The notes under the pieces are model-generated. The model saw only the letters and a list, made by a program, of their open reading frames with translations, ran no database searches and had not been told where the DNA came from. This document shows, one piece after another, positions 6,932 to 27,122 of a stretch of 64,000 bases of DNA. A program made the translations under genes and the position numbers. The stretch covers positions 143 to 64,142 of the forward strand of contig CAUWCX010000008.1 of the NCBI GenBank assembly GCA_963557105.1, read 5' to 3'. The DNA comes from an uncultured Oscillospiraceae bacterium. GTDB lineage: Bacteria > Bacillota > Clostridia > Oscillospirales > Oscillospiraceae. The number at the start of each line of letters is the position of its first letter. Position 1 is the stretch's first letter.

Positions 6932-7676
6932 GGTTATCTCCTCCAAATCTGATTTTTTCCATTTCCATCCTGGCCCGCGCCAGGGCAATCACCTGGTCAT
7001 CCGCACGCTGCGGGGTGCTCTTGGCCGCCAGCCGCGCCGCCACCAGATCCGCCCAGCGGTCCAGTGCGGCCTCTGACAGCCCAGTGAAGCCCATGCCCTT
7101 AATGACACCGGCATCCCGCTGGGCGGGTACCGCCACGAAGCTCCACTCGTAGGCGTCCTGAGGGTCGCTCAGCACGAAGTGACAGGTCTTGCCGTCATAG
7201 TCCATGCCCGCCCGGTGGCCGCAGCGGCCCCGCTGGCCGCCGCAGATGGAGCACAGGCACTGGCCCATGCTGGCGCCCACGCTGACCTCCCGCTTGATCC
7301 CGGTCTCGATCTCCCGGATCAGGGCCTCGTTGGCCTCCGTCCGGGGCATATAGGCCCAACCCTTCAAATAGCACAGGGTGTCCCCCGCCGCCGTGGCCTG
7401 GCCGGGGACCTCCACCACCTCCGTTTTGTACAGCCGGGCGGTCTGACCCTGGGCGGTCCAGCGGTGGTCGAAGATGCCGGGCTTGCCCACGAACAGCTCC
7501 GCCAGCTTGTCCAAAGCGGGGCGGTCGAACCGCTCACTGTCCCGGTCGACCTCGTTGTCGCACAGCCGCAGGGCGAAGGTGAACACCTCCTCCGCCGTCA
7601 CCGGGGACAGCGTGAGGCCGTTGATCAGCGCCAGGTCGGCCTCGCTCACCTGGCTGCTCTTGATAATGGTCTCCAT
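6924..7676 (-). CDS. Prohead protease / scaffold-type maturation protein
   Basis: 250 aa between portal and capsid genes. The motif region FALRLCDNEVDRDSERFD..GKPGIFDHRW resembles HK97-type prohead proteases. The call is partly positional. Confidence 0.6.
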   Translation of the reverse strand: METIIKSSQVSEADLALINGLTLSPVTAEEVFTFALRLCDNEVDRDSERFDRPALDKLAELFVGKPGIFDHRWTAQGQTARLYKTEVVEVPGQATAAGDTLCYLKGWAYMPRTEANEALIREIETGIKREVSVGASMGQCLCSICGGQRGRCGHRAGMDYDGKTCHFVLSDPQDAYEWSFVAVPAQRDAGVIKGMGFTGLSEAALDRWADLVAARLAAKSTPQRADDQVIALARARMEMEKIRFGGDNHG

Positions 7677-7679
7677 GGT

Positions 7680-8972
7680 CTACTCCTCTCCATTTGGCTC
7701 TCTGCCCAGGGCCCGGATCACGCTCAGCCGTGCCCACTCCTCCAGGGGGCCGTAGTTCCACGATGCGTAGCGGCTGCCGCCGCCGGGGACATTGGGCAAG
7801 TCTTCGTACCCCCGGATGTCGTCCGGGCTGTAGACGCCCACCTCCCGCATGGCCTTATACCAGGCGGCCTGTGCCGTGGTGTCCCCCCGCAGCAGGGCCT
7901 TGAGCTCCCGCTTGATCCGCAGGCCCGCCTGCCGCTCCCGGGGCAGGAGCAGCTTGTAGCTGTCCTCCTGCTCCCGCTGGGTGACGATGGGCTGCAGCGT
8001 GAACTTGGCGAACTCGATAGCGTTCTGCTCGTTGGAGCTGTATGCCTGCTTACCGGCATACACCATGTGCAGGGGCGTGCCGAAAAACCGGCAGATGTCC
8101 GCCACCCGCAGCTCCTCGCTCTCCACGAACTGGGCGTCCGCATTGCTCATGGCGATGGGCTGATATTTAAGGCCGTTGTCCAGCACCGCCACCCGGTAGG
8201 CGTTGCCCGCCCCCACATGGATGCGCTCCCACTCCCGCCGGATGCGCTCCTTCTTGCTGATGGTCTCCTTGCTGCCGTCGGCGTTGACGATCTCCACATT
8301 GCCGCCGATGTCGGAGTCCACCGTCAGCACGCCGGAGGGCCGCCCGCCGTTGCGGTACAAAGCCTTCTGGCAGGACTGGGACGCCAGTCCCGTCTCGATG
8401 GCGGCGGATGCCCGCTGCAGAATGGACACGCCCACGATGCCGTCGGTGGAGTATGCTTTGTAGTGGAGCACGTCCGCCGGGTGCAGTTTGGACATCTCCC
8501 CTGTGCGGGGGTTCGTATACACATACCACAGGACCCCGCCGGGGTCCAGGAAAGGGAGCACCTGGTCCGGGTCCAGGGGGATCAGCTCCCGGGGCCAGCC
8601 CGTGCGGCCGTCCCGGTTGAGCCAGGCGTAGGCATTGCCCCGCAGATCCAGGTTGACCTGAAGCAATCGTTCGTAGTCGAAGCGGGTCATAGCCTCATTA
8701 GGCCTCTCCCACAGGACCTTGCCAAGTCGGTGCTCCCGCAGCCGCTCCTTGGTCCCCTCGTTGAAGAGATACACCGGCAGGGACGCCACCGTGGAGGAGC
8801 GGATCTCCACGCACCGGTTGACAGTGCTCAGCTTCATGGCCCTGTCCCGGCTGAGGCCGGACTGTTCTACATCGTAGAACGCCTCCAGGCCATAGACATC
8901 CCGACCGGTGAGCACGCCGCTCAGACCGCCGGGCCGCCCCGCCGCCTTTCGAATGCCACTGGCCAAACTCAC
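7680..8972 (-). CDS. Phage portal protein, HK97 family
   Basis: 430 aa, downstream of terL. LSTVNRCVEIRSSTVASLPVYLF.. is portal-like. Confidence 0.85.
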   Translation of the reverse strand: MSLASGIRKAAGRPGGLSGVLTGRDVYGLEAFYDVEQSGLSRDRAMKLSTVNRCVEIRSSTVASLPVYLFNEGTKERLREHRLGKVLWERPNEAMTRFDYERLLQVNLDLRGNAYAWLNRDGRTGWPRELIPLDPDQVLPFLDPGGVLWYVYTNPRTGEMSKLHPADVLHYKAYSTDGIVGVSILQRASAAIETGLASQSCQKALYRNGGRPSGVLTVDSDIGGNVEIVNADGSKETISKKERIRREWERIHVGAGNAYRVAVLDNGLKYQPIAMSNADAQFVESEELRVADICRFFGTPLHMVYAGKQAYSSNEQNAIEFAKFTLQPIVTQREQEDSYKLLLPRERQAGLRIKRELKALLRGDTTAQAAWYKAMREVGVYSPDDIRGYEDLPNVPGGGSRYASWNYGPLEEWARLSVIRALGREPNGEE

Positions 8973-9166
8973 GCCCCATCACCTCCAATCACCATCAGCA
9001 CACCGGCCGCCAGGGCCAGCACGCCGCCGGTGATCCACCCCGCCGCCGGGGCCAGCAGGGCAGCTCCCGTGGTGATGGCCACAGCCCCCACCAGCAGCAG
9101 CACCTGGGGCGCGATCCGCCCCCACAGCTGCCCCAGGCTGGGGCGGTCACGCTGTTTCTTGTCCAT
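8969..9166 (-). CDS. 65-aa small membrane protein between terL and portal
   Basis: ATG 9164-9166 after AGGAG. MDKKQRDRPSLGQLWGRIAPQVLLLVGAVAITTGAALLAPAAGWITGGVLALAAGVLMVIGGDGA (two TM helices). Confidence 0.5.
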   Translation of the reverse strand: MDKKQRDRPSLGQLWGRIAPQVLLLVGAVAITTGAALLAPAAGWITGGVLALAAGVLMVIGGDGA

Positions 9167-9281
9167 CCGTACTCCTTTCCCCTCCCGGGGCTGTGCCGGA
9201 CAGGGGGACCTTGCGGTCCCCGCTGCCAGGAGGAAAGATCCGGGCAGGCCCGCCCCCTGCCCGGCACAACCCCGGGGAAAC

Positions 9282-11027
9282 TTAAAGACTGAAATCCGGC
9301 CGCTCCAGGGCCTCCGCCAGTGTGGCGGGCCGCTGCTGGCCGATGGTGGCCGTGGCCATGGCAATGATCCAGGCCACCAGCATGTCGATGCGGCCAATGG
9401 ACCGGTTTTTCATGGGCTTGATGTTCTCGTTGCCATCCGCCGCCATGCGCACATTGCCGAAGCACCACCGCAGGGCGGTGTTGTGGACGTGGAGCATCTG
9501 GTGGCCGCGGATGAGCCGCTCCAGCTCCTTGGTGGGCGGCGACATGTGGAGCATGGTCTGGGGGATCTCCACGATCTCCAGCCCGTCCTCCCCCAGCCGC
9601 TGGGTGAGGCTCCGGCTCATGTAGGGGTCCACCCCCAGCAGCTTGAGGTCGAAGGCCGCCCGGGCCTCCTGGATGGTGGACTCTACCATGGTGTAGTCCA
9701 CCATGTCCCCGGGGCAGAGGGTAATGAACCCCGCCCGCGCCCAGTCCCGGTAGGGGACATGGTCCCGGACCTCCGCCTCCACCGCCGTGTCCGCCGGCCG
9801 CCAGCCGTGGACCAGGGCCACCCAGGTGTCCAGCCCCTCCTGGGGTGGGAACAGCAGGGCCAGGGCCGTCAGGTCCGTGGTGGTGGAGAGGTCCAGGCCG
9901 CCGTAGCAGGTCTTGCCCCGCAGGCGCGCCAGCCACGCTCCCCGCTCCCCCTGGGGGGATGGCCCCCACTGGGTCTTGTCGTAGATGGTCAGGGGAATCC
10001 ACCCCACGGCCTTGGTGGAAATCCACTGATTGAGCCGCAGCCAGCGGAAGTTTCGCTCCGCCGCCTCGCTCTGCTTGGCCGCCCGGGCCTCCGCCCGGAA
10101 CTGGCGGGCCTTGATGGTAACCCCGAAGCTGGGGTTGCAGGCCCGCCACACCGCCTCGTCCCAGATGTCCAGGCCGGCGATGCGGTCCGGGTCGTCTCCG
10201 GTGAGGGCGCTGACCCCGTACATGATGGGGCACCACTGGGGGTCATCGTCGTCCATGGGCCGCTCCGGCTCCCCCCGCCGCCAGGCCAATATGCGTCGGC
10301 ACTTCTCGTGGATCTCCCACCCGATGCTCCCCCGGTCCGGGTCGTCTCCGGCGGTGGTCAGGACGATCACCGCCTGCTGCCGCCGGGCGGCGTCAGATCC
10401 CACGGTGAGGACGTCCCACAGCCGCCGGTTGGGCTGGGCGTGGAGCTCGTCGATGATGACGGCGGAGAACGAGAAGCCGTGCTTGGTGTCGGCATCGGAG
10501 GAATAGACCTTCATCACCCCGCCCCACCGGGTGCGGATCTCCCGGGTGCTGTCACGGCACCACACCAGGGGGTCGTGCTCCGGCTGGCCCAGGGCGGTGT
10601 GCTCCACCATGTACTTGGCGCACTGGTAGATAATGTCCGCGTTGCTCTTGTCCGCGGCGAAGATGCCCACCTGGGGGCGGCTCTCCCCGTCGTAGACCAG
10701 GTGGTACAGGCCCAGGGCCGCCGCCAACTCGCTCTTGCCGTTTTTCTTGGGGATCTCCGTGTAGAGGAATCGGCGATACCGCACCCAGCGGCCGTCCTCG
10801 TCCTCCACCTGCACCCCGTAGAACTGACCAATGGCCTCCAGCTCCCAGGGCAGGAGGCGGAAGGGCTGGCCCGCCCACTCGTTCTGGCCGAAGACCAGCA
10901 GCCCCAGGAACTCCAGCACAGCGTCCACGGCCTCCTGGCTGTAGCGCAGCTTCAGCCCCTCCTCCGGGGCGGGGACCAGGATGCCCTCCCCCAGCTCCAG
11001 CAGCACGGGGGCGGTCACTGCGTCCAC
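9282..11027 (-). CDS. terL: Phage terminase large subunit
   Basis: 581 aa. Contains FLYTEIPKKNGKSELAAALGLY (Walker A-like) and a downstream nuclease region. Position is terS > terL > portal. Confidence 0.9.
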   Translation of the reverse strand: MDAVTAPVLLELGEGILVPAPEEGLKLRYSQEAVDAVLEFLGLLVFGQNEWAGQPFRLLPWELEAIGQFYGVQVEDEDGRWVRYRRFLYTEIPKKNGKSELAAALGLYHLVYDGESRPQVGIFAADKSNADIIYQCAKYMVEHTALGQPEHDPLVWCRDSTREIRTRWGGVMKVYSSDADTKHGFSFSAVIIDELHAQPNRRLWDVLTVGSDAARRQQAVIVLTTAGDDPDRGSIGWEIHEKCRRILAWRRGEPERPMDDDDPQWCPIMYGVSALTGDDPDRIAGLDIWDEAVWRACNPSFGVTIKARQFRAEARAAKQSEAAERNFRWLRLNQWISTKAVGWIPLTIYDKTQWGPSPQGERGAWLARLRGKTCYGGLDLSTTTDLTALALLFPPQEGLDTWVALVHGWRPADTAVEAEVRDHVPYRDWARAGFITLCPGDMVDYTMVESTIQEARAAFDLKLLGVDPYMSRSLTQRLGEDGLEIVEIPQTMLHMSPPTKELERLIRGHQMLHVHNTALRWCFGNVRMAADGNENIKPMKNRSIGRIDMLVAWIIAMATATIGQQRPATLAEALERPDFSL

Positions 11028-11245
11028 GGCGATCCCTCCCCCTTGAGGACGATCCGCCGCAGCCGCCGGGGCGGATCACCACCCATGGCCTGCACCAGCA
11101 GCAGCCCCGGCTGGGGGCCGTCCACCTGGGGCCGTACCCGGGCGGCGCCGGTGACCACCAGACGGCCCAGGCACGCCGGGCATAGGGCATCCGCCGGAGC
11201 CCGGCCCTCGTACACGTCGCCGCAGTCGGCGCAGACGAAGCGCAT
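11015..11245 (-). CDS. Small zinc-ribbon protein
   Basis: ATG 11243-11245. MRFVCADCGDVYEGRAPADALCPACLGRLVV.. (CxxC..CxxC). Overlaps the terL start by 13 nt. Confidence 0.45.
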   Translation of the reverse strand: MRFVCADCGDVYEGRAPADALCPACLGRLVVTGAARVRPQVDGPQPGLLLVQAMGGDPPRRLRRIVLKGEGSPWTQ

Positions 11246-11253
11246 CAGCTCTC

Positions 11254-11742
11254 TCACGCCTGCCGCCTCCTCTCCAGCAGCTGCACCAGGGGGTTGTCCT
11301 CCGCCCCCACGGGTTTCTCCGGCACCACCAGGCGGCACCGGGCGGAGATAGTGAGGCCCAGATCTGTGGCGCAGTCCCGGGCCTGCTTGAAGAGGCGTGC
11401 CTGCACCCGGCCCCAGCCGTCGGCGCTCTCCAGGTCCCCGTCCCCCAGGGCCCGGTTGACCTGGCCGGTGGCGTAGAGCCACTCGGCCCTGGCCATGCAG
11501 TAGGTGGCGATGGTCTCCCCGTCCAGCCGGGTCACCATGGAGGGCATCAGGGCGATGAGACCCTTGGATACCCGGTTGAACTCCTCCCGCTGGGCCTTGG
11601 GCAGCCAGTCCGGCGGCGTCAAGCGCTTCACCGGCTCCGGGTTGCGGACCTCCCCGGCCTCCCGGGCGGCCCGCTCCGCCTTACTCAGATGCTTGGCCCC
11701 CCGGCCTTCAATGACCTCCAGGGGAATACGCTGTCCTGCCAT
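11254..11742 (-). CDS. terS: Phage terminase small subunit (P27 family-like)
   Basis: 162 aa immediately upstream of terL. PDWLPKAQREEFNRVSKGL..TIATYCMARAEW is P27-type. Confidence 0.8.
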   Translation of the reverse strand: MAGQRIPLEVIEGRGAKHLSKAERAAREAGEVRNPEPVKRLTPPDWLPKAQREEFNRVSKGLIALMPSMVTRLDGETIATYCMARAEWLYATGQVNRALGDGDLESADGWGRVQARLFKQARDCATDLGLTISARCRLVVPEKPVGAEDNPLVQLLERRRQA

Positions 11743-11845
11743 ATAGTCACCTCCTCGTATAATTAAAAAGCGCCAGGGCCGAAGGGCTCCATCTCATAGG
11801 GAAACAAACTGAACCCCCAGGGGCACTACCGGTACGGAACAAACG

Positions 11846-11885
11846 GAATAGCCGCAAGCTATCGTGTGATGGCTTGCGGCTATTC
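11846..11885 (-). terminator. Terminator hairpin after the 1755-aa helicase gene
   Basis: GAATAGCCGCAAGC (11846-11859) pairs with GCTTGCGGCTATTC (11872-11885). On the minus strand it is followed by CGTTTGTTCC. Confidence 0.55.
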
Positions 11886-11888
11886 ATA

Positions 11889-14800
11889 TTATAGGCTGTC
11901 TAAAATCGTTTTTAATGCATAGGGTTTAGCATATTTCAAATGCGCATCACTCACAAAAATGGTGTTTTCTTCTATTGGCTTTGTCCACATAGCCGGATAT
12001 ACTACTACTTTCTTTTTGCTATAACACCCCTCTGCCCAAACTGATTCGTGATTAACATCGATATGTATGCCGGAAATCTGGAGAATTTGTTCCAAGGATT
12101 TCAAAAGATACTGCTGTTTTTCGTATGGGATTGCAGATACTCTTGCCCCTGTTTCTCCCCAGTTCAATAAATCAAGTGCGGCCTTACGATCGAGAACGCT
12201 GTGGATGTATTGATTTCGATAGTGCTTTAGACACCTGTGGCAAGCACTGTCACAGGTACAGCTTTCGAGAAGTTCTCGAGTTTTGGTAAGTAGCTGTCGA
12301 ATAGAGGATTCAATGCTAACAGCATAACCTGCACCACTTGAAAGGCTATCATACAAGTAGATATCAACGAAATCTCCATTGCGATTTTGTCGAACACGAA
12401 AACCAGTCACAAGCTCTGTAAATTCAATGTCCAATTCCTGACATGCTGCCAAGCGCAGGCCTTCTGCAAGAGACTGTCCAGCACGGTTAAGCCAAGAATT
12501 CCTGGTGGGATTAATATCGATCTGCTGTCGATCCAAAGCAAATTCCAGAACAAGCATATCTGTAACAAAGTCATATCCAAGATTCACATTGATTGTATCG
12601 CTATGCTTGCAACGTGTTTTGATGAATTTGGATCTATACGGACGCAAAACATCCTTAAGAACCGCGGGGTCATCTCCGGGCATTGCAGCACCGCAGTCGC
12701 AGCAGATTGTGAATCCCTTACCACTAACACCATTGTTAAGCATGATGATTCGCTGATTGGGACGAACAGCCATTCGGATGTTGGCACATCCATTAACCGC
12801 CGTAACATCATCTGCATCGGGTAGTGTGGAATATAGAGGTTGCTGAGTTGCTGAGTATTCTTCATTCAATTGTGCCGTTTCAATGGATGTGGCATTTCGT
12901 GGTGCGAATCCCCATGGGCGTAGCATTGGCAACATATTTGTCAATGCTTTATTGCCGCAGAAAGGACAAGTATCAGGGTTATCCTCTTCTAAGCCAAACC
13001 AACCACACTGACTGCAGGTACGAATGCTTTTTCGGTAGCTTGCATCCTGAATAAATGCTTTGGCTGGAGATGCAGCAGTTCTTTCGCTCCGCTCTCCTCC
13101 GGGATAATACAAACCACCAATCTGGTAGGTCGTCTTATCAACAACAATCGCTCTGCCAGGCGCATATTCACCAATTGCAACATCCAACCCTCGTTCAACC
13201 TGATATTTTACCTTCCCGCTGACATCGGAAATATATGTGCTAACAACATTTTTGGGGAAAGAATAGGTAGGTATAACACCCTCTTCATAAAGCGCATCCA
13301 AAAGCGATTTTTTCCCAGAATCACTGCTATCATCTGTTTCAAACAATTCAGGATGATCATCTCGTTTTTGCTTCAGCGCCGACAGAGATTTTTCAAGTTC
13401 ACCTTTGTAGCTATCTAATGCACCTTTGGAGCTAACGGGCACAAGAATATCATCTTTGCTAATTTCAAAGATTGCCAAAAAGCTGCTGAAAGGCTGTAGG
13501 TGTTCATCCAGAAATTCAATGGCAGGGATAGCATCCAAACTGTTAGACTTCTCTCTCAGATAGGTTTGAAGTGCAACCATACCAAGGTGGCGCTGGGTAA
13601 TTTTCTCACTGCTGATATCAATCCACGGTCTTCTGGGATTGCCTCTGAACATTGGTACTGGGTTGGAAAAGTACAAGGAATCATGGGGGCCATCCTCGCA
13701 AAAAGTAACAATCGTAGACAGACTTGAACCGCGACGGCCAGCACGACCAGCACGTTGCTGATAATTCTCACGCATAGGAGGAATATTGCGCAAACCGACA
13801 GCAACCAACGATCCGATATCGATACCTACTTCCATTGTAGTTGTGCTGCTCAGAATATCTACAGGCGCCTCGCCATTCTGCAAAAAATCCTGGAAGCGAA
13901 GTTCATACTGCTCTGTCCTGGACCAGAGTTCATCCCGCTGATCTTTATGGGAAAGTTGGGCAGTATGTTCTTCAGTATCAATTACACGAATGGTGTCACC
14001 TTGAAGCGCATCCTCAATGGGCTTGCGCCAAAAAGCCAATGCATCAATTTCTTCCGTTGTCATGGGATGAATCTTTTCGCACTGACAACTTGGGCATTTC
14101 CCCTTTAATAAATACGGCGTGAGCTCTGAGCAGCGTTCACAACGGAACCACGTGTGTTCTAAATCAAAACGCGGTTTTATACGAGAAAGATCAATATAAT
14201 ACTTTCCGTTGGAAGACGAACCTTCGTCCATAAATGTTTCCCGCAAAATCTGGCTCCACTTTGCAGCAACAGAATCATTATCGCTCCATCCCATTATTTC
14301 GCGGATATCGGTCGAAAACTTTTTGCTCTTATCAATGCCATATCCCACATAGTTTGGCCGCACTTTTTCACGAATCACATCCGGGATGGTATGTCCAAGA
14401 ATCACGGAAGTATCACAAGTTGAAAGAATCCATGCATTAAAGAATTCCATGAATTCTTCCTCACTTATTTCGATGCCTGCTTCCTCTAACGCATCAAGTG
14501 CATCCCATTTTGCGGCATCCGTAGGCTCTATCCAACTGAGGGCTGAATCAACCAGCGTATTATATCCTCCACAGTAAAAACGAATGAGCTGTTCCTTCAT
14601 TTGGGTAGGCGCATTATCAATAGTAAAACGAGGAGTGTACTGTTGCCCACGTTTCTTTGCACGTGTGTAATTCTTCAGTGCCTGTGTTCCATGCTCAATT
14701 AACCGTTCTCGTTGTTTTTCTGTCTCGCTATCATGGAAAATTTGAACATGATGCTCCACAGCTACCATTGCAAAGTAGTCATAGAAATAGTTCATGGACT

Positions 14801-17156
14801 GCTCTGCAACTTCGTGTTCCATTCGATCAATGGCAAGCACCGCAAGCTGTCGGGCCGCAGTCATATCAGATGCGTCAGACATATCTCTTGCCAGCTTAGC
14901 TGCACGTTGGCGGCTATCTGAGAAAAGCAGAACTTTCCGCCCCTCGTTTGGAAGTCGATCGGGATCGCCTGTTTTCCCTGGAACCGCAGGTTGAGCTTGG
15001 AATTGCGCTTTAATCAGATTGAAGAAGGACTGGTTGCCTCTTGTATTAAAAGAGGTCAGTTGCATCTTAGATAGTTCATGCCGACAATGCGGACAGGTGG
15101 AAAATGTCAGAATGTCCGGTCGGGCCTTTGCTGTGAAGCCGCTATAATACAGCTTTCTGATGCCCTGCTTTCCATCCAAGGAATCATCAGAAAAGTCGAT
15201 GAAGCCGCTTTGAACATCTAAGTAGCAAGGCGAAATTTTATTCTGTCCTTGACGTTCCGGCAATCGATAACCTGCAGACGGAATGAAAAGATGTATTTCT
15301 TTAACCTCATCTTCATTTATCATACCAGGTTGATGCCAGAGGTATGTACGTCTTCTGGCTTCAAAATCTTGCTTCAGCACAAAACCTCTGAAGAAAATAC
15401 TACCGCACCGGCGATCATTGTATAACTCATAAATTGTGCTTCCGCATTCTTTGCAAGTAAGATTACCATCCGAAAAATAGACCTCACCCAATGTTAATCC
15501 GTTTTCCGTGTGCGAATGAGGACATTCTGGATTAGTACAAGCGTAAACGCCCTTGATTCCACGAAAAAGCATATGCATTCTTGCTGGAAACAAAACACTT
15601 CCACTTTCGCTTCGCGCCAAAGGTGCGATCGAAAGCATAACACTGACAGCGTGCAGGGCATCTTCTAAACTATTATCAGGAAAGATAGACTCCGCTAATT
15701 CTTGTAAAGAGACTGCTGTTCCGCGGCAAAGTTTGAACATTTGGCAGAATGGTACATAGTCTACCAGATGGTCGTATAGCCATTGGTATGCATCTTCAGA
15801 AGAAACGAATGGAGCAGGACTATTGGCAATACCTGTCCAAAATCCATTGAGTGCCATAAGGCGTTCCGGATCATCGCCCTCAAACGCATCCGGAAGAAAT
15901 TCTTTAAATTTACTGAAGGGAATATGAACTGCACTTCCGCTGCCTATTTCCTCTCGTTCGCCAGTAAGATAACAGAACGGATGCATGTCGTCGGATGCAG
16001 TCAATTCATTTGCAAATGTCCTGACGGCCTTCCTGTCATTCTCGTCATTGTTGGGCATACTTGCAGTAGTCAATATAAATTGAACTCTACTGCGATTAAT
16101 GCCCAAACGGTGGAATAAGCGCCGAATGAGCAATGATACCTCGCCGCCTGCAGAACCACGATACATATGCGCTTCATCAATGACAAATAGAAGCTTATTA
16201 TTCGGATCTGCATTTAGCCATGCCTGAGTATCTGACCATATTTTATGCTCTCTTGGCCGAAGAAGCATATATTCAAGCATGGAGTAGTTTGTAATCAAAA
16301 TATCGGGGCAGAATTGCTGCATTTCAAAACGAGTTACCAGTTCTGCATCCTCATCGTTCGGAATATGTTTTCCGTTATAGAGTTTTTCAAGAAATTCATC
16401 AAAATTTTCTTTGGCCGGTAGTTTTCCGTCCTTAATGAGTTTCTCTAAAAAAGCTTTTTCTTCGTCGTTTTCAGGATTGACCATACGAGAATATGTTGCC
16501 GCAAGTGAACGGTCCTCACTACGTCGGGGCTCCTTACCAGCATAAGGAGTTCTGCCGGTATACATGCCGAATTGAGGCCGGCGGGAATTATTTCCACATG
16601 CGGTGCGGAATATATTTATAAATCGGTGGTCTGGATCGCCAATCAAACGACGCAAACGACTAATCTGGTCAGAAACCAGGGCGTTCATAGGATACATGAT
16701 AATCGTTCGGACACCACGCATAGCCCAACTATCAGGGTTATTTCTTGCTTCTGAAGCAAGTTTTGCCATCAAGGGCCACATAAAGCATTCTGTCTTACCA
16801 GAGCCTGTACCTGTTGACACGAACAAATCCTGACCTTCAAATGCCGCTTCCAAAGCGGAAATTTGGTGACAGAAAGGTGATGGATATACGCCAAGATTTG
16901 CATCTGATAGCGCCTTAAAATAGTCTTTCAGCCAATCAGGTAGCTTGGGAGATAACTGAATTCCGTTTGGCGAACTCTTGTAGGCGGGTGATGATTCAAC
17001 ATACGGTTTTTGATAAAGAACACCTTCTTGATTCAGCTTATTTTGTGCAGCAGACAGCAAGATAGGTGACTTCCCAAAATATTGAGACTTTATATAGTTT
17101 TCCAGAGCTTCACGCAGTTGCAAGTGAACTCCGTTTGCACCATTGGACATAATCAT
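11889..17156 (-). CDS. Giant SF2 DEAH helicase with inserted zinc ribbons and C-terminal DUF1998/MrfA-type Zn-binding domain (DruE-like)
   Basis: Motif I GTGSGKT (nt 16791-16811), motif II DEAH (16167-16178), TAS, LLFSDSRQ, motif VI QQRAGRAGRRG. Cys pairs: CTNPECPH..CKECG, CPHCRH, CERCS..CPSCQC, CSQCG..CPFCG, CCDCG..CKH. C-terminal CTCDSACHRCLKHYRNQ (12231-12263). The second ATG (17150) has the better SD spacing. Confidence 0.85.
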   Translation of the reverse strand: MIMSNGANGVHLQLREALENYIKSQYFGKSPILLSAAQNKLNQEGVLYQKPYVESSPAYKSSPNGIQLSPKLPDWLKDYFKALSDANLGVYPSPFCHQISALEAAFEGQDLFVSTGTGSGKTECFMWPLMAKLASEARNNPDSWAMRGVRTIIMYPMNALVSDQISRLRRLIGDPDHRFINIFRTACGNNSRRPQFGMYTGRTPYAGKEPRRSEDRSLAATYSRMVNPENDEEKAFLEKLIKDGKLPAKENFDEFLEKLYNGKHIPNDEDAELVTRFEMQQFCPDILITNYSMLEYMLLRPREHKIWSDTQAWLNADPNNKLLFVIDEAHMYRGSAGGEVSLLIRRLFHRLGINRSRVQFILTTASMPNNDENDRKAVRTFANELTASDDMHPFCYLTGEREEIGSGSAVHIPFSKFKEFLPDAFEGDDPERLMALNGFWTGIANSPAPFVSSEDAYQWLYDHLVDYVPFCQMFKLCRGTAVSLQELAESIFPDNSLEDALHAVSVMLSIAPLARSESGSVLFPARMHMLFRGIKGVYACTNPECPHSHTENGLTLGEVYFSDGNLTCKECGSTIYELYNDRRCGSIFFRGFVLKQDFEARRRTYLWHQPGMINEDEVKEIHLFIPSAGYRLPERQGQNKISPCYLDVQSGFIDFSDDSLDGKQGIRKLYYSGFTAKARPDILTFSTCPHCRHELSKMQLTSFNTRGNQSFFNLIKAQFQAQPAVPGKTGDPDRLPNEGRKVLLFSDSRQRAAKLARDMSDASDMTAARQLAVLAIDRMEHEVAEQSMNYFYDYFAMVAVEHHVQIFHDSETEKQRERLIEHGTQALKNYTRAKKRGQQYTPRFTIDNAPTQMKEQLIRFYCGGYNTLVDSALSWIEPTDAAKWDALDALEEAGIEISEEEFMEFFNAWILSTCDTSVILGHTIPDVIREKVRPNYVGYGIDKSKKFSTDIREIMGWSDNDSVAAKWSQILRETFMDEGSSSNGKYYIDLSRIKPRFDLEHTWFRCERCSELTPYLLKGKCPSCQCEKIHPMTTEEIDALAFWRKPIEDALQGDTIRVIDTEEHTAQLSHKDQRDELWSRTEQYELRFQDFLQNGEAPVDILSSTTTMEVGIDIGSLVAVGLRNIPPMRENYQQRAGRAGRRGSSLSTIVTFCEDGPHDSLYFSNPVPMFRGNPRRPWIDISSEKITQRHLGMVALQTYLREKSNSLDAIPAIEFLDEHLQPFSSFLAIFEISKDDILVPVSSKGALDSYKGELEKSLSALKQKRDDHPELFETDDSSDSGKKSLLDALYEEGVIPTYSFPKNVVSTYISDVSGKVKYQVERGLDVAIGEYAPGRAIVVDKTTYQIGGLYYPGGERSERTAASPAKAFIQDASYRKSIRTCSQCGWFGLEEDNPDTCPFCGNKALTNMLPMLRPWGFAPRNATSIETAQLNEEYSATQQPLYSTLPDADDVTAVNGCANIRMAVRPNQRIIMLNNGVSGKGFTICCDCGAAMPGDDPAVLKDVLRPYRSKFIKTRCKHSDTINVNLGYDFVTDMLVLEFALDRQQIDINPTRNSWLNRAGQSLAEGLRLAACQELDIEFTELVTGFRVRQNRNGDFVDIYLYDSLSSGAGYAVSIESSIRQLLTKTRELLESCTCDSACHRCLKHYRNQYIHSVLDRKAALDLLNWGETGARVSAIPYEKQQYLLKSLEQILQISGIHIDVNHESVWAEGCYSKKKVVVYPAMWTKPIEENTIFVSDAHLKYAKPYALKTILDSL

Positions 17157-18181
17157 TCCTCCACAAAGCAGTAACCCATTGATTCCAACTCATGTTTGAA
17201 CATAGGATAGATTTGCCTTGCCATCATTCTTGTAAAGACTTGGGGCGTTTTTGATGTAAAATCATATCGCACAGGCCAGCTATAGAGTTTGAAGAAGTTT
17301 TCTTCCGAAGGTGGCAGACGATAACCAAGTTTAATTTCTACCAGACTTCCCCTTGCCTTCGTTTTGATTTCTGGAAGTGTTCCATGTTTTTTTAGAAGTG
17401 ATATTGCAATCCTTCTATATTCGCCGTGGTTGCCTGGAACATTCGAAAAATAGTCCCGCATTCTCCATTCTGGAATCGGTGTATTCAGAAATACCCCATT
17501 ACTGTATCGATAAAATACAAAAATTTTATTTGGTTCACCATATCTTGCAAGGGATATATGGTCATTTTTTTCGGGAATCTGTTGCCAATACCCCCATTTA
17601 AATGGAGGATCAAGCCGCAGAAACTCTGAGTTATCTGGCCATTCTATTTGTTCCCATTCGCAATGCGCCAACAGTTCTTCGAGATAGCTTTCAAACGACT
17701 GCTTCTGCAAACCAAACATTGATGATATTGTCCTGTCGGAAGTTGAAGTTTGAACGGAATAGAAACCCAATCCGCTCATAAATAACTTCAAGTCAGGTGA
17801 AATACCTCTGTGAAGAACAAGATCCCCATTTCCTCCAGTTGCAAGAGCGGTTGGGGATATTTGATAAGCGGAATGATAAAAGAACCCATTTCGCAGATAG
17901 ATAGAGTACATTTCCTCAATCAAATCCGTCTTGTCATGCGGGAGGAGAAATCCAATCTTCGGATAAATGCCTTCATAAGCATCAAAAATCTGGCCAATTC
18001 TGCTTTTGAAGTGCTGAATAGAAACTGAACCTCCATCCTCGGTGTGATCCCAAAGCGAAGCGAGAGCCATTTGCCCAGCAACACTATAAACGACCCGACA
18101 AACCCATTCGTTGTCATCTGACTGAGGAATATTTAATTGCCTTCCAATTGAAACAATTAGGTCGTTTATCATATCGTTCAC
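17153..18181 (-). CDS. Hypothetical protein, 342 aa (operon partner 3)
   Basis: GTGA overlap with the upstream stop, ATGA overlap with the helicase start. An alternative ATG lies at 18172. No motif I can name. Confidence 0.7.
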   Translation of the reverse strand: MNDMINDLIVSIGRQLNIPQSDDNEWVCRVVYSVAGQMALASLWDHTEDGGSVSIQHFKSRIGQIFDAYEGIYPKIGFLLPHDKTDLIEEMYSIYLRNGFFYHSAYQISPTALATGGNGDLVLHRGISPDLKLFMSGLGFYSVQTSTSDRTISSMFGLQKQSFESYLEELLAHCEWEQIEWPDNSEFLRLDPPFKWGYWQQIPEKNDHISLARYGEPNKIFVFYRYSNGVFLNTPIPEWRMRDYFSNVPGNHGEYRRIAISLLKKHGTLPEIKTKARGSLVEIKLGYRLPPSEENFFKLYSWPVRYDFTSKTPQVFTRMMARQIYPMFKHELESMGYCFVEE

Positions 18182-20226
18182 TCTTCCTCAATATATCTTG
18201 CAACTTCAGCTTTTACCGAGCTGGAGATTCCGCTCTCGCCTTCAATAACATCCTTTAAGACATCCAATCTCCCGGTAAGTACGCAGAGAGGAAGCACACC
18301 AAAGAGCAGTTCCAAGTCCTTATCTTTTGCGGGATTCTCCAAAATGCATTTTGCATCGGACAGGACACGAGTTAACTGGCCCAATAGGAGTTTGCTAAGG
18401 CCTAAACGCTTAAATGCAGATATCCGGAGAGACTGTTTTTCCTCAGAAACATATGGTTGGAACTTCTCAGCGCGTTTACTTGGCCATGTCTCGAGAGCAG
18501 GTAAACTTCCTATAAAACATTCACTCAGGACAGGGAGCATGTAATTATAAAGGCCTTTCGGCTCAATAAGCATATCCTCGACATATGGATGGGTCCAGAT
18601 TATCTGCTTTTTGAGTCTTGTAAACTTCTGCGGTAATGCATCCGTCCACCCTTTTCCGAACATATTTTGAACCGACACAATAGAATCGTCAGCCTCGCTG
18701 ATTCTTTCCACTATAGAAAGGTCACATTCATCTCCTAAAGTCAATTGTCCTGCTCCGTTTGCGTACATCGAAACAGACAGCACCTCAGCAATATCCTGTC
18801 CCCCAGGGCCTGCAATCAAAGTTGGCACATTGTTGATATGGGTTGCATACAGAAAAGCAGTGAGCATTGAGCAGAAGTCTGGTTCAATGCCCAACGCACA
18901 TGACAAATTCTGATAGATTGCATCATATTCATTGCGCCAGCTTTCTGCGAGTTCAATATCCTCATCAGAATATTGGCCACTGGTACTGCTGTATTGCCAT
19001 GAGGCAGGGGGATTCCCATACGGCAAGGTTGCATTTGACTGAGGCAGAAAAACAGAAATATCAGCAATGAATCCTGCCATATCTTTTTGCGCGTCAGCAA
19101 TTTTCTGGCGCACTGCGACCAGCGTTTCTTTTCCAATCGATTCATATTGCGCTATCTCTGCAAGTAACCGATCAAGTTCACCTTGTTTTGTGGCAATTTC
19201 TGCAAGTAGTTCACTATGCTGCTTTTTTGCAATGGATATTGTTTCTTCCATTTCTGAAACTTCTGCCTCAGCTTTGGCAATTTCAGCAGCATGAGAATTA
19301 TGCCATTCCACGGATACGGCTTTTTCGCATAATTCTCTTAATTCATCGTGATTCTTTGCAATTTCAGCCAACACATTAACATCGATATCGCCGACTTTAA
19401 TCAATGCATCTGCTCGATTAACAAAATCATCAACTGTCTGTTTTGCTTGGTCCAGAGTACAATTTAGTTTTTGAACAATCGCGTCGTACAAAGATTCTCC
19501 GCAAATCTTCTCAAGAAGAAGTTTGCAATGTTTCCATTCAGCCTTGGTGGCACCAATACACTCCTTAAACAAAGGCCATGTGGTGCGTTCAAGAATGAGC
19601 GTGCGAATAACCTCGTCTGTATTTCCTATTGAAACATATCCAGAAGGCTCTCCCACCTGAAGTGTTTTTAGAAATCTTAGGTTACGATCATCCCAATTAT
19701 AGATATCCCCGGAGGAAATTGTGTAGCTTGGCAGGGAGTAGACAGTTTCCGAAAGTTTTGCACATCGATCCGAAATGTTGAACTCATTTGCACGACACAG
19801 TACGCCTGCGAACTGCCCCCATTTAGGTTCATAGCAAAAAAGTGTATCGCAAAAGTAAGCTTGTGTACGAGCAGTTCCATTCTGAAGTTGTTCAACCACT
19901 TCGTCTAAAGACTTTGCCATAAGAACTACTACACGTACCGGCGAGTAGTCTTTGACATAGTACGACTGGACATAGTCAATTGCTGGGTTATCCCTATTAG
20001 GAATTGCTGTCCACTCCCAAATACCGACCGTTCCAAGCGCAGTAGGCCCATCGTTGCGGTACAGTCTATCTCTGTTTTCAAAATAGTTATCCGTCCGTTC
20101 CGACTTGAATGGTGTATGTAAAATATCATCTTCCACATCTGCTAAACGGTTCAGCCATATACGCCCTTCGTAATCTACTGTAATGTAGCACAGTGATGTG
20201 AAGGAAACTTCATTGTCAATCATCAT
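18178..20226 (-). CDS. Hypothetical protein, 682 aa, with central coiled coil (operon partner 2)
   Basis: Heptad-like segment AEIAKAEAEVSEMEETISIAKKQHSELLAEIATKQGELDRLLAEIAQYESIGKE. LIAGPGGQDIAE resembles a degenerate P-loop that lacks the Lys. Start overlaps the upstream gene by 8-11 nt. Confidence 0.7.
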   Translation of the reverse strand: MMIDNEVSFTSLCYITVDYEGRIWLNRLADVEDDILHTPFKSERTDNYFENRDRLYRNDGPTALGTVGIWEWTAIPNRDNPAIDYVQSYYVKDYSPVRVVVLMAKSLDEVVEQLQNGTARTQAYFCDTLFCYEPKWGQFAGVLCRANEFNISDRCAKLSETVYSLPSYTISSGDIYNWDDRNLRFLKTLQVGEPSGYVSIGNTDEVIRTLILERTTWPLFKECIGATKAEWKHCKLLLEKICGESLYDAIVQKLNCTLDQAKQTVDDFVNRADALIKVGDIDVNVLAEIAKNHDELRELCEKAVSVEWHNSHAAEIAKAEAEVSEMEETISIAKKQHSELLAEIATKQGELDRLLAEIAQYESIGKETLVAVRQKIADAQKDMAGFIADISVFLPQSNATLPYGNPPASWQYSSTSGQYSDEDIELAESWRNEYDAIYQNLSCALGIEPDFCSMLTAFLYATHINNVPTLIAGPGGQDIAEVLSVSMYANGAGQLTLGDECDLSIVERISEADDSIVSVQNMFGKGWTDALPQKFTRLKKQIIWTHPYVEDMLIEPKGLYNYMLPVLSECFIGSLPALETWPSKRAEKFQPYVSEEKQSLRISAFKRLGLSKLLLGQLTRVLSDAKCILENPAKDKDLELLFGVLPLCVLTGRLDVLKDVIEGESGISSSVKAEVARYIEEE

Positions 20227-21775
20227 TATCCCTCCCAGGATTATTTTGAATGGTTTTCCTGAGCAAATTTAAAGCTGTACGGGAAATTTCGCCTCGCCGC
20301 AAAGCCTTGCAGAGCCATTTTTGCGTTTGGGGATATTTCGAGAATTTACTGACAAAACTTCCAACTGCATGCGTTACAGGAATCATCGGGCCAGAGCAAG
20401 AACTCAATTTTTTGACAAGCACAGCATCCAGCAACATAACATCCATGTTGACGGTTTCCTGCTCAAAACGAATGGAGCGAATGTAGTCGCAGCCTTGATA
20501 AAAATGTATCTCTGTGCCAAATGATAGTTCGTCGATTGTTAAATGCTCCTCGCCAGAAAGCTTGTAGATATATTCGGTCTTACCGTTTCTTTGAACCACA
20601 GCCTTCCCATCATACGGGCAAGAAACTGATATGCACTTTAATTTAGGGAGTTTTGCATAGCTCTCTTCATTTAGCGTGTTGCCAGAATGATCAGATATAA
20701 TTATTGCTGGTAACGGCGCCTTTTTGCGCAGGGGTTGCTTTACCAAATAGGAGAATCCCAATGCTCCAGACTTTCCAAGTGAGATTAACTGTTCTCTTTC
20801 CCTGGTATAGAGCTTGTATAATTTCCCGTCTTGAGTACCCAGCACATTCGCAGTTGCGGGGTATGATTTCAGTTCGGCATCATCACCGCATAAATAGAAG
20901 TAAAATTCCGCTGAGTTGTGGTATATAAAATACGGATCCTGGATGTATGCTGGCCATATAGGATAGAATTTGGTTGGTTTTTCAGTTAAGAAAATAGCAT
21001 ATTTAAGGAAAAACTTTGCGGAGCGTTCTGAAAACTTTTTAATGCGAATTTTATATAAATACCAACTATTGAAAGAGTTTGCGCGCGTTTTGGCTATTTC
21101 TATTGCTTCGATATCTGCAGGAAAAGTATATATTGGATGCCGTTGCAATAAATAATAGAAATTTCCGGCATACGCCTTTCCGCCAGATTGTAGAATCTGG
21201 CCAGTTCGTCCGTCAAAGAAGGAGCCAGCCTGGTTGATTCCCGGTATATTGTTGGACCAAAATCTTCTTAATTCGGGATTAGCATTTATGTATTCAACAC
21301 AGTAAATCTGGCTTGGAATAGAGCCAACACTCAAGTAGGTGGTTCCAATCCGCTCAATTCGCTCAAACGAGTACTCATAAACTTGGTGTGAATCTCCGGC
21401 TATCTTAATTTTGTCGCAGTGTGCCTTGTTGTCTGGAGGGTAGAAGAACCCTAATTGTAGAGAAAATATCGATCCTGTTACAACAAGGCGCAAAGGCATT
21501 ATATGGCTGTTAAGTGCTCGTAGCGATCGACCGTAGTTTGGATCAAAAGAGGCTTGGCGTTCGTCGCATTCTTTATTGGGAGAGGCCGGATCATGACGGA
21601 AGTGTTGAACATTCATACCAGGGACGGTAAGTAAAACATTTTGTGCGCATAATTCACACACAAAATGGCCGCTTCGTGCTGATGCACCATAGGGATACAT
21701 CTTGCAAGCCTCTTCTACTGTGATACGACGATATCCAATTTTAGAATCCCATACGCATACATGAGTTAATGGCAT
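20216..21775 (-). CDS. Hypothetical protein, 519 aa, with N-terminal Cys/His zinc-ribbon-like motif (operon partner 1)
   Basis: N-terminus ..GHFVCELCAQNVLLTVPGMNVQHFRHDPASPNKEC.. (CxxC ... HFxH ... C), reminiscent of CoiA-type N-termini (memory only). The rest is unrecognisable. Confidence 0.7.
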   Translation of the reverse strand: MPLTHVCVWDSKIGYRRITVEEACKMYPYGASARSGHFVCELCAQNVLLTVPGMNVQHFRHDPASPNKECDERQASFDPNYGRSLRALNSHIMPLRLVVTGSIFSLQLGFFYPPDNKAHCDKIKIAGDSHQVYEYSFERIERIGTTYLSVGSIPSQIYCVEYINANPELRRFWSNNIPGINQAGSFFDGRTGQILQSGGKAYAGNFYYLLQRHPIYTFPADIEAIEIAKTRANSFNSWYLYKIRIKKFSERSAKFFLKYAIFLTEKPTKFYPIWPAYIQDPYFIYHNSAEFYFYLCGDDAELKSYPATANVLGTQDGKLYKLYTREREQLISLGKSGALGFSYLVKQPLRKKAPLPAIIISDHSGNTLNEESYAKLPKLKCISVSCPYDGKAVVQRNGKTEYIYKLSGEEHLTIDELSFGTEIHFYQGCDYIRSIRFEQETVNMDVMLLDAVLVKKLSSCSGPMIPVTHAVGSFVSKFSKYPQTQKWLCKALRRGEISRTALNLLRKTIQNNPGRDNDD

Positions 21776-22030: not shown

Positions 22031-22246
22031 GGTTTCACCCCGAATAAGAAGGATTTATAAAATTATACTACTACGAACCACATCTGTTTTCAACATATTT
22101 CGCTTTTTCACGAGTTGTTTCGATTGTATAAATTAAAGTTATCGCGAATCTAAACGCTTTTTGCTTTACGAGTGATTTTTAAAATATTTTGTTGGCTATT
22201 CCCCTCGTCCTGTGATATTGTGTGTTGCTACCAGGAGGTGCAACGC

Positions 22247-22567
22247 ATGAAAACACGACTTAAGACCCTGTATGACTGCTTCTATACCCCGCCTGAGTTT
22301 TCGGAGCAGAAGCAGGAAGTGAAAGAATGCCACCAGGCACTCATTCAAGTGCTGGAGAAGCCGGAACGGCGGCTGGTACTACGAATCATGGATGCCCAGA
22401 GTTTGATGGCAGAGGAACGCTCCATCGACAGCTTTATCTCTGGATTTGAGCTGGCGTGGCAGCTCTCCATGGAACTGAATCAATTTGAAAAAGAGCGCTC
22501 AGTCTCTCGCTGTACGGCGAAGAGATCGGGCGCTCTTTCCATGTCCGAAAAGGAGGAAGCAACATGA
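22247..22567 (+). CDS. Small conserved mobile-element protein (106 aa)
   Basis: ATG 22247 after CCAGGAGGTG. MKTRLKTLYDCFYTPPEFSEQKQEV..FISGFELAWQL. Resembles small proteins common in clostridial ICE/phage accessory modules (memory only). Confidence 0.55.
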   Translation: MKTRLKTLYDCFYTPPEFSEQKQEVKECHQALIQVLEKPERRLVLRIMDAQSLMAEERSIDSFISGFELAWQLSMELNQFEKERSVSRCTAKRSGALSMSEKEEAT

Positions 22568-23025
22568 AGAAACAAATCATCCCTACTGCAGCGTTTGCCG
22601 CCTGTCTGGCACTGTGTGCCGCTGTGTGGCCGCAGAAGCAACCAGCCGAGGCAATCCCCGCGCTGCCCACGCCAGCTGCTGTAATCGCCACACAGCCCGA
22701 AGTTCCAGAGATAGCAGAGATGGAAGAAGTCATACCGCCAGAGAAAGAAAAGGCGGAAGCAACACAGCAGGAACTGGTCGAGGAAACTGACATTGTCCCG
22801 GAGCCATCGCCTGCTCAAGCGCCCCCAGAGAGCGAAGTACAGGCTCCCTCTGAACAGGATGCCACACCACAGCAAGAACCGGAGCCTACCCCGGCACCTG
22901 ACAGCAAGCCGGACAACATGGTCTATGTGCCAGGCTTCGGCTGGATAGAAAGCCAAGGACCCAACCATGCGGAATACGCCGAGGACATGTACGAGAACGG
23001 TAGTAAAATCGGGATCATGGGATAA
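22564..23025 (+). CDS. Secreted Pro/Glu-rich protein with conserved C-terminus (153 aa)
   Basis: Signal peptide MKKQIIPTAAFAACLALCAAV, low-complexity P/E/Q linker, then C-terminal MVYVPGFGWIESQGPNHAEYAEDMYENGSKIGIMG. ATGA overlap with the previous gene. Confidence 0.6.
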   Translation: MKKQIIPTAAFAACLALCAAVWPQKQPAEAIPALPTPAAVIATQPEVPEIAEMEEVIPPEKEKAEATQQELVEETDIVPEPSPAQAPPESEVQAPSEQDATPQQEPEPTPAPDSKPDNMVYVPGFGWIESQGPNHAEYAEDMYENGSKIGIMG

Positions 23026-23070
23026 ATGAAAAGCAGTGCGGTATCAGGTCAAAGTCTGGTGCCGCACTGC

Positions 23071-25157: not shown

Positions 25158-25306
25158 AGGGCCACCCCCCTCTGTCCTATATCTGTTTTCCGCCTGTCTT
25201 ACGATATTCTCATTTTATCAAAATTCCCCCAATAATCAAGTGAAAGGACAAGAGCCACGGTGGCCGCGTGGTCTCTGTCCTTATCTTTTTATAAGGGGAT
25301 GATCCT

Positions 25307-25405
25307 ATGAGCAAAACAAAACGACTACAAACCATTGACGGCGAGAGCCTGATGAGCCTACCGCTGACGCCGCTCAACTTCGTGGTGGACACGCTGCTGT
25401 CACAG
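25307..25405 (+). pseudogene. N-terminal ~33 codons of an AAA_25/RepA-like ATPase gene, truncated
   Basis: MSKTKRLQTIDGESLMSLPLTPLNFVVDTLLSQGLH matches the usual start of ICE/plasmid RepA-like ATPases (..LLPQGLH, then the P-loop). The homology stops there and the sequence runs into a convergent gene. Confidence 0.45.
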
Positions 25406-25696
25406 GGGCTGCACAAGAGTAGGGATGGGGGTGATCTGATGTTGTACGTAGTACCGCTGGAGGGCGGCCTGGTAGGCCTCCTGGTCGATCTCCTCCGCAG
25501 GGCGGAACATCTCCTCGTAGTAGCTGGGCCAGCTTCTGCGGGCCTCCTCTGCCTTTCTGTTGATTTCCCCTATCTGGTATCCAAGAACGGCCACAAAGAC
25601 CACAGCGGCCACCAGAACGCCGCACAGGGCCGCTATGATGGTTATCTCCACTGCCCGGCGAATGTCCCGGCGGCGCTGCATACGCGTTTTGCTCAC
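25400..25696 (-). CDS. Membrane-anchored hypothetical protein (98 aa)
   Basis: Basic N-terminus plus TM helix (ITIIAALCGVLVAAVVFVAVLGY). Its last ~10 codons lie in the junction with the truncated ATPase fragment. Confidence 0.5.
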   Translation of the reverse strand: MSKTRMQRRRDIRRAVEITIIAALCGVLVAAVVFVAVLGYQIGEINRKAEEARRSWPSYYEEMFRPAEEIDQEAYQAALQRYYVQHQITPIPTLVQPL

Positions 25697-25707
25697 ACCG
25701 TCACCCC

Positions 25708-26461: not shown

Positions 26462-26525
26462 AGCCTCACCTCCTCGAACGGTTGTTTTTATTCTTGCTTT
26501 TTGATTGGTCGTGTGATAGGATTTA

Positions 26526-26645: not shown

Positions 26646-26681
26646 TCTTCTCACCCCCCCTTTTCTAAAATCAGTTTCGCC

Positions 26682-26996: not shown

Positions 26997-27122
26997 TTCT
27001 TCTCACCCCCTTTCGCCCTTTGCTTAAGCACATGATAAAGCCTAGATTTAGGATTGTCAATAAGATAATCTTAAATTTAGCGTTTTCGCCGTTATCACCA
27101 ATTTTTAACTCTGGATGTGCAT

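Follow-up and report, generated by a model that had tools for sequence, protein, structure and literature searches.

The DNA analysed here (hereafter the window) is a stretch of 64,000 nucleotides from an uncultured Oscillospiraceae bacterium (GenBank assembly GCA_963557105.1, contig CAUWCX010000008.1, positions 143 to 64,142 of the forward strand). Its reverse strand carries an open reading frame (ORF) encoding a superfamily 2 (SF2) helicase of 1755 amino acids, together with three genes located 5' of it on the same strand, each overlapping its neighbour:

20216..21775, reverse strand: druB, 519 amino acids, with an N-terminal CxxC...H...C zinc finger
18178..20226, reverse strand: druC, 682 amino acids (short form), with a coiled coil at residues ~250-390 and a degenerate P-loop-like 'LLxAGP' ('LLLAGP') region
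17153..18181, reverse strand: druD, 342 amino acids, overlapping druE by 4 nt (ATGA), matched by PADLOC DruD1
11889..17156, reverse strand: druE, Druantia type I YprA-family SF2 helicase, matched by PADLOC DruE1 and by Pfam DEAD, Helicase_C and MZB

The helicase ORF is very probably druE, the signature helicase gene of the anti-phage system Druantia type I, here closing a translationally coupled druB-druC-druD-druE operon without druA that a mobile element carries as a low-GC (guanine plus cytosine) cassette within the high-GC genome of a gut Clostridia (Oscillospiraceae-like) bacterium. The GC content of the operon is 42-45%, against 60-67% in the rest of the window.

Family assignment rested on profile searches, in which PADLOC DruE1 (PDLC00013) matched the helicase collinearly from end to end (E=0, 1728.7 bits; residues 3-1751 aligned to positions 3-1770 of a profile of 1776). 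The DruE2, DruE3 and DruE4 profiles gave best scores of 539-639 bits with partial coverage (DruE3 at most 539 bits), and local matches to the helicase core were obtained with DpdJ (E 1.6e-21), DrmA (E 3.3e-10), BrxH and Cas3. Pfam identified DEAD, Helicase_C (residues 1088-1143) and MZB (PF09369, formerly DUF1998; residues 1565-1643, E 1.5e-10, 42.1 bits against a cut-off of 24.2, profile 3-80 of 80), in agreement with an earlier reading of the sequence (the original prediction) that had placed the protein in the DUF1998-terminated DruE/MrfA/DrmB family; its specific identity is DruE of type I. The best sequence matches in the Protein Data Bank (PDB) were two 'DEAD/DEAH box helicase' entries, 9tu7 (2108 residues, E 1.6e-75) and 9wae (1970 residues, E 2.7e-66), which we take to be recently solved type III DruE proteins based on their size and on the 2026 type III DruE preprints. 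The significant matches to DruE2/3/4, DpdJ and DrmA, along with the type III identity of the solved relatives, might point to the helicase of another YprA-centred defence system (Druantia II, III or IV, ARMADA, DISARM or Dpd). We consider this very improbable, as these matches are partial and about three-fold weaker than that of DruE1; no gene for DruH, DruM/F/G, a PglX-like methyltransferase, a BrxHII-like helicase or a phospholipase D (PLD) nuclease lies adjacent; and the protein has no C-terminal PLD domains, a tail that aligns with type I, and DruB, DruC and DruD as neighbours.

Next among the PDB sequences was MrfA (6znp, E 4e-15), which is also the best structural match for both models of the protein described below, and one DruE homologue has been named 'ATP-dependent helicase YprA (DUF1998 family)' by JGI. 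Such observations would suit an MrfA/YprA-type (or Lhr-type) helicase that has a housekeeping role in DNA repair and carries extra inserts, a reading that is scarcely credible and that we regard as effectively refuted. MrfA is ∼750 amino acids long and lacks the ∼1000 amino acids of inserts; DruB, DruC and DruD accompany it in a conserved operon, on a low-GC mobile cassette whose neighbours vary between genomes; no exonuclease partner (MrfB/YprB) is adjacent; and NCBIfam returned for DruE only generic helicase models, far under their cut-offs (it offered no model for DruB, DruC or DruD). The original prediction had named full-length collinearity with a repair family, or lack of conservation of the Cys pairs, as outcomes that would count against it; instead, the MrfA match covers only ∼120 residues of RecA2 (1098-1218), DruE1 matches throughout, and the Cys pairs are conserved. 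A megablast search of druE against E. coli genomes gave no match, which speaks against an enterobacterial host. In the precomputed Pfam annotation, the newer family PF27116 ('YjiV_N') weakly matched DruE homologues. DruE of the window is a divergent new member of a known family.

Helicase motifs were located at GTGSGKT (motif I, Walker A; residues 116-122), DEAH (motif II; 327-330), TTAS (motif III; 363-366, with TAS at 364-366), LLFSDSRQ (motif IV region; 743-750) and QQRAGRAGRRG (motif VI; 1133-1143). The part of RecA2 that includes motif VI (residues ∼1060-1200) is the best-conserved stretch in comparison with PDB entries 9tu7, 9wae and 6znp. Conservation was assessed on 23 full-length homologues taken from genome loci (56-99% identity), among which the Walker A, DEAH and motif VI sequences are invariant and the core is intact. 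All ORF, motif and Cys-pair positions quoted in the original prediction were reproduced, and its figure of about 400 residues between motif III and the second lobe corresponds to a counted distance of 377 residues from motif III to motif IV. The 5' end of druE reads GGAGGA-ATGATT-ATG: the first ATG directly abuts GGAGGA and overlaps the druD stop as ATGA, while the second (17150) lies 6 nt past GGAGGA. Residue Met3 is kept in the homologues and residue 1 is not, and a 99%-identical database protein (P0001) was called by gene callers at 1753 amino acids. The start is thus likely the ATG at 17150, as had been proposed, giving a protein of 1753 amino acids. The suggestion that the protein is unusually short for DruE was not borne out: the DruE1 profile has 1776 positions and the type I proteins of P. 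putida and a haloarchaeon have 1841 and 1807 amino acids, respectively, the length of ∼2000 amino acids given in the original prediction being appropriate for type III.

The domain layout was derived from motifs, Pfam matches, invariant residues and AlphaFold2 models (all features on the reverse strand):

15957..16874, reverse strand: RecA1 lobe (residues ~95-400) with motifs I-III and a helical insert at residues ~212-260 (motifs, Pfam DEAD, AlphaFold2 secondary structure)
15618..15917, reverse strand: helical domain after RecA1 (residues ~414-513), all-helical in the AlphaFold2 model with a pLDDT (predicted local-distance difference test) score of ~80-90
15051..15584, reverse strand: beta-rich putative zinc-binding domain (residues ~525-702) before motif IV, with Cys clusters 1 and 2 (AlphaFold2 strands, pLDDT ~78-92)
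14907..14930, reverse strand: LLFSDSRQ, first RecA2 strand/motif IV region, aligned with 'llTFtDSRQ' of 9tu7
14157..14912, reverse strand: large helical insert inside RecA2 (residues ~749-1000; AlphaFold2 helices)
13557..13979, reverse strand: rest of RecA2 (residues ~1060-1200) with motif VI (Pfam Helicase_C; AlphaFold2 poor here)
12477..13259, reverse strand: OB/connector region (residues ~1300-1560) with Cys clusters 4 and 5 (invariant Cys; Foldseek matches to MrfA and DrmB)
12210..12464, reverse strand: MZB/DUF1998 domain (residues 1565-1649) with Cys cluster 6 (Pfam PF09369)
11892..12209, reverse strand: C-terminal alpha/beta domain or 'tail' (residues 1650-1755, 106 amino acids), aligning with other type I DruE tails

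Two models were built, covering residues 3-1200 (mean pLDDT ∼75) and 1190-1755 (∼74). Foldseek ranked MrfA first for each, with 6znp at E 3.5e-6 for the C-terminal model followed by DrmB (7s9v); it did not return 9tu7 or 9wae from a library extending to April 2026. A helix-turn-helix insert in RecA1 has been described for type I DruE (PMC12458937). The helical domain at residues ∼414-513 appears to occupy the position of the domain called 'BrxA-like' or 'five-helix' in DruE (PMC12458937, 10.64898/2026.05.12.722862). Similarly, the insert at residues ∼749-1000 would lie where the same two reports (PMC12458937, 10.64898/2026.05.12.722862) name a 'MarR-like' or 'Cap' domain. The beta-rich domain at residues ∼525-702 was recovered in the model and aligns with the CxxC-rich region of the type III protein 9tu7, and short hairpins were modelled at clusters 3 and 4.

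DruE contains 38 Cys in total and eight CxxC motifs, against 0.8 expected from its composition (∼10-fold), a count reached in none of 20000 shuffles. Between the lobes are CTNPECPH (540-547), CKECG (568-572) and CPHCRH (688-693); before motif VI, CERCS (1006-1010) and CPSCQC (1021-1026); past motif VI, CSQCGW (1381-1386), CPFCG (1397-1401), CCDCG (1485-1489) and CKH (1516-1518); and in the MZB domain, CTCDSACHRC (1633-1642), followed by KHYRNQ (1644-1649). These resolve into six clusters of Cys that are invariant in all 23 homologues:

Cluster 1: C540/C545/C568/C571, invariant in the homologues
Cluster 2: C584/C644/C688/C691, invariant in the homologues
Cluster 3: C1006/C1009/C1021/C1024, at 14079..14147 (reverse strand), C-terminal end of the helical insert, with short strands in the AlphaFold2 model
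Cluster 4: C1381/C1384/C1397/C1400, OB/connector region, invariant in the homologues
Cluster 5: C1485/C1488/C1516 with the fourth ligand uncertain, OB/connector region, invariant in the homologues
Cluster 6: C1633/C1635/C1639/C1642 (CxCx3CxxC), MZB/DUF1998 domain, invariant in the homologues

The claim of at least five Cys-pair zinc ribbons therefore stands as far as conserved Cys clusters are concerned, with the number revised to six because the insert between the lobes holds two. All cluster Cys except C644 are also kept in the type I DruE of a P. putida plasmid and of a haloarchaeal plasmid, at 31-33% identity. A published account of DruE (Bell et al. 2025, PMC12458937) describes a beta-barrel zinc-binding module at the RecA2 start, beside the BrxA-like helical domain; a further zinc module carried by the MarR-like insert; two zinc-module inserts in the OB region of all Druantia types; and the DUF1998 four-Cys cluster. 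The five clusters beyond MZB match these modules in position (ahead of RecA2, behind the helical insert and, for two of the modules, within the OB region), and structural zinc motifs have been seen in cryo-EM structures of type III DruE (10.64898/2026.05.13.724313, 10.64898/2026.05.12.722862). The predicted multi-zinc-module architecture is genuine and conserved, yet it is an already published trait of the family (PMC12458937), and the novelty that the original prediction implied for the zinc ribbons falls away.

The C-terminal tail, said earlier to have no obvious counterpart, aligns with the C-terminal domains of two distant type I relatives, the DruE proteins of P. putida and Natrialbaceae. 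It was modelled as an alpha/beta domain with a pLDDT of ∼87-94 over residues ∼1660-1755. A 30-sequence alignment revealed no conserved acidic/His catalytic set in the tail, the only invariant residues being Q, P, M, S, K and P; Pfam searches at E<=10 on seven diverse tails produced no match; and Foldseek with the whole 566-residue C-terminal model returned MrfA, DrmB and noise only. In PMC12458937 (text and Table S2), the tail of type I DruE is interpreted as a Vsr-like nuclease fold that has become inactive. Five DruE homologues (P0084, P0087, P0099, P0103 and P0104; ∼64% identity) are 1862-1865 amino acids long, ∼110 amino acids longer than the other homologues; in P0084 and P0103 the extra length is a ∼114-residue domain past the normal tail, and the P0084 tail gave no Pfam match.

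The partner genes are very divergent. PADLOC DruD1 matched the window DruD at E 2.6e-10 (residues 5-319, profile 1-315 of 338), and wherever a related locus keeps its flanking sequence, druD is the gene immediately upstream of druE. DruC1 matched 5 of 15 DruC family members (best E 8.5e-10) and DruB1 matched 6-8 of 15 DruB family members (best E 6.9e-8). Family-to-protein comparison using hhalign aligned the DruB family with P. putida DruB at E 5e-5 over 229 columns, including the N-terminal CxxC...H...C finger (residues ∼35-75), in which C40/C43/H61/C70 are invariant and which is common to P. putida DruB; the comparison of the window DruC family with P. putida DruC was weak (E 0.0028, over the GP region). 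Pfam yielded nothing significant for DruB, DruC or DruD, only coiled-coil noise for DruC and a weak CoiA_N/DUF7830 resemblance of the DruB finger. The DruC coiled coil accounts for matches to LmuB and JetC. A published view is that an inactivated, McrB-like homologue of CnuB is encoded by Druantia I and II, and the DruC coiled coil and degenerate P-loop-like region would fit this view. Judged from profiles and alignments, the genes upstream of druE are divergent druB, druC and druD.

DruC also occurs in a long form of ∼880-1030 amino acids with an N-terminal extension (loci L004, L005, L013, L015, L016, L019, L020 and L028). In L004, whose DruE is 90% identical to that of the window, the extension of DruC (6328-8979, forward strand) is a Macro domain (E 4.4e-31); the extensions in the other loci gave no Pfam match. 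The N-terminal module of DruC is thus variable: absent in the window, a Macro domain in this close relative and a ∼220-350-residue extension in others.

No druA was found. Upstream of druB there is no same-strand gene; the next ORFs, encoding small DUF6809 and DUF6550 proteins, are on the opposite strand. Across 16 related loci the upstream neighbour of druB varies, and none is conserved. Searches with two DruA proteins (tblastn) against the window and 40 related loci, mostly from gut Clostridia, gave nothing better than E ∼1, and PF14236 (DUF4338) was not present in the Pfam tables of six metagenome contigs with an identical DruE. With druA missing, and given that the P. putida plasmid system has it and the original definition includes it, the operon might be what is left of a five-gene type I system that has decayed and no longer functions. 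However, the B-C-D-E order and intact overlapping ORFs are kept in those related loci with enough upstream sequence, at DruE identities of 56-99% and in four host groups (Oscillospiraceae 74-99%, Lachnospiraceae ∼60-65%, Phascolarctobacterium 71% and Anaerobiospirillum 56%). The locus of Anaerobiospirillum succiniciproducens (L020, 4074-22048) contains two druBCDE-type systems in tandem, the first encoding proteins of 526, 999, 451 and 1761 amino acids and the second of 533, 1029 and 365 amino acids with its druE cut by the contig end. More than 7600 database proteins match DruE at E<=1e-10, and the 99%-identical DruE cluster has 1134 member sequences and was read on 22 contigs. Intact ORFs, invariant helicase motifs and Cys clusters, and wide spread argue for selection for function and not decay, and we therefore consider a remnant highly unlikely; from these comparisons druBCDE looks like a maintained four-gene variant.

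No paper on a DruA-less four-gene variant was found in a limited literature search. We tentatively propose, as a possibility to which we give somewhat less than even weight, that druBCDE represents a distinct, DruA-independent type I lineage that has reached various gut Clostridia, and also Anaerobiospirillum, as cargo situated at the margins of mobilisable elements and prophage-associated islands, with the role of DruA either dispensable or taken over by the variable DruC N-terminal module.

The surroundings of the operon are consistent with such a cargo position. A hairpin lies 4 nt past the druE stop and coincides with the GC boundary (∼0.45 to ∼0.67), and beyond it is a high-GC prophage packaging/head module; mobile-element genes are found on the upstream side of the operon (22172-32400), with DUF6809 and DUF6550 nearest:

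11847..11884, reverse strand: hairpin with a 14-bp stem, RNAfold -27.8 kcal/mol
5717-11742, reverse strand: prophage packaging/head module, downstream of druE
11254-11742, reverse strand: small terminase
9282-11027, reverse strand: large terminase
7680-8972, reverse strand: portal
6924-7676, reverse strand: phrog_16951 protein
5717-6988, reverse strand: major head protein
23071-24036: sigma-70-like protein
24033-25157: DUF6076
28407-29042: S24/HTH repressor
29088-30170: HSDR_N endonuclease
31062-32195: tyrosine integrase with N-terminal zinc ribbon, adjoining tRNA genes
32311-32387: tRNA-Pro
32587-32674: tRNA-Ser
32709-32800: tRNA-Ser

The hairpin could be the operon terminator or a recombination site; its loop exceeds the length that the consensus terminator scan accepts, and it was spotted by eye and folded separately. 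Promoter and terminator scans of the operon gave counts at chance level. An ORF overlapping the prophage genes (7179-11351, forward strand, 1390 amino acids) had no Pfam or PADLOC match and is probably spurious. A search for attachment sites found no direct or inverted repeat of at least 11 nt common to 11300-12000, at the druE end, and 32150-32900, the tRNA/integrase region.

The window was compared with the six metagenome contigs carrying an identical DruE (L037-L042). The DUF6076-sigma-DUF6550-DUF6809-druBCDE block is retained in them, and downstream of druE there is PolA in four and a PRK gene in two, with no terminase. As the same block is found with differing downstream neighbours, we place druE at one edge of a mobilisable element with several insertion sites. 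An assignment of the cassette as a moron of the adjacent prophage was not adopted, given the shared upstream module of these contigs, their PolA or PRK neighbours, and the relaxase, NikA-like and AAA_25 genes that lie beyond the upstream module in L037.

We know of no published mechanism for type I Druantia. One preprint reports a link to m6A methylation but gives no mechanism. Type III DruE translocates 3'-5' and loads at junctions (10.64898/2026.05.13.724313, 10.64898/2026.05.12.722862), and by analogy with it and with MrfA, the window DruE may load at single-stranded DNA or at duplex-single-strand junctions of phage replication or recombination intermediates and translocate 3'-5' on single-stranded DNA in an ATP-driven manner, with the OB-connector-MZB 'canopy' closing over the DNA strand. 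The zinc modules would mainly stabilise the small inserted domains ringing the DNA path, and perhaps provide contacts for DNA or for DruB, DruC or DruD. Since the tail is without conserved catalytic residues and seems to be inactive, one of these partner proteins would probably supply the effector step, which could be cleavage of DNA or a block to replication.

Several points weigh against the assignment of the locus to type I Druantia as described here. The original definition of type I includes druA, so the operon falls short of a strict five-gene system, and the window DruB and DruC are themselves below significance against PADLOC, with only more divergent members of their families matching. 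Confidence in the AlphaFold2 models is moderate (pLDDT ∼74-75), with RecA2 and the MZB cluster poorly modelled; zinc binding is read here from Cys positions, and the Vsr-like fold of the tail is taken from PMC12458937. The mechanistic steps proposed above all derive from work on type III DruE and MrfA, in which the accessory proteins and the C-terminal nuclease domains are different.

What is mildly novel here is the conserved DruA-less operon with its mobile distribution in gut Clostridia. The abundance of a DruA-less four-gene type I system on mobile elements of human and animal gut Clostridia suggests that DruA is not universally required. If a DruA-independent lineage is real, druBCDE would offer a smaller genetic system for dissecting the type I mechanism. 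Furthermore, recognition of the druE region as defence cargo on a mobile element beside a prophage aids annotation of the window.

Among known systems, MrfA/YprA (6znp, 6znq, 6zns), which acts in mitomycin repair in B. subtilis, resembles the window DruE in its RecA1/RecA2 core, its OB-connector-MZB canopy and its four-Cys cluster. It differs in having ∼750 amino acids, a single zinc site and no inserted domains, in working in repair with the MrfB exonuclease, and in not being known as mobile-element cargo. ARMADA ArmC, of the same YprA family, shares the BrxA-like, beta-barrel zinc-module and MarR-like inserts (PMC12458937), and DISARM DrmB is the second-best structural match to the C-terminal module of the window DruE. 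ArmC is predicted to carry an active Vsr nuclease and the DISARM helicase is split into two genes, neither of which applies to the window, and ARMADA and DISARM operons include a methyltransferase and a BrxHII-like helicase that were not found in the window operon or its flanks, nor was a dpd gene set.

Type III DruE (9tu7, 9wae) shares the YprA-like core, the zinc module between the lobes, a Cap/Gate-type helical insert, the OB-connector-zinc module and the motifs. It is ∼2000-2100 amino acids long, has two C-terminal PLD-like domains and works with DruH, whereas the window has neither PLD domains nor an adjacent large DruH-like gene.

The closest counterparts are the type I DruE proteins of P. 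putida plasmid pKF715A (WP_096427124.1) and of the Bell et al. 2025 representative (WP_061581103.1), which have the same domain order as the window DruE: RecA1 comes first, then the helical domain, the beta domain rich in Cys, the helical insert and its Cys cluster, RecA2, an OB region holding two Cys clusters, MZB and finally the short C-terminal domain. With the exception of C644, each Cys of the clusters has its counterpart in distant type I DruE, although the window DruE is only 31-33% identical to the proteobacterial and archaeal proteins. In pKF715A the canonical order is DruA (409 amino acids), proteins of 558, 625 and 260 amino acids, and DruE, from which the window operon differs in being without DruA; its hosts are gut Clostridia and its cassette lies on a mobilisable element, unlike the proteobacterial and archaeal type I examples. 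DruB, DruC and DruD, very divergent here, are the type I partners that the window and pKF715A have in common.

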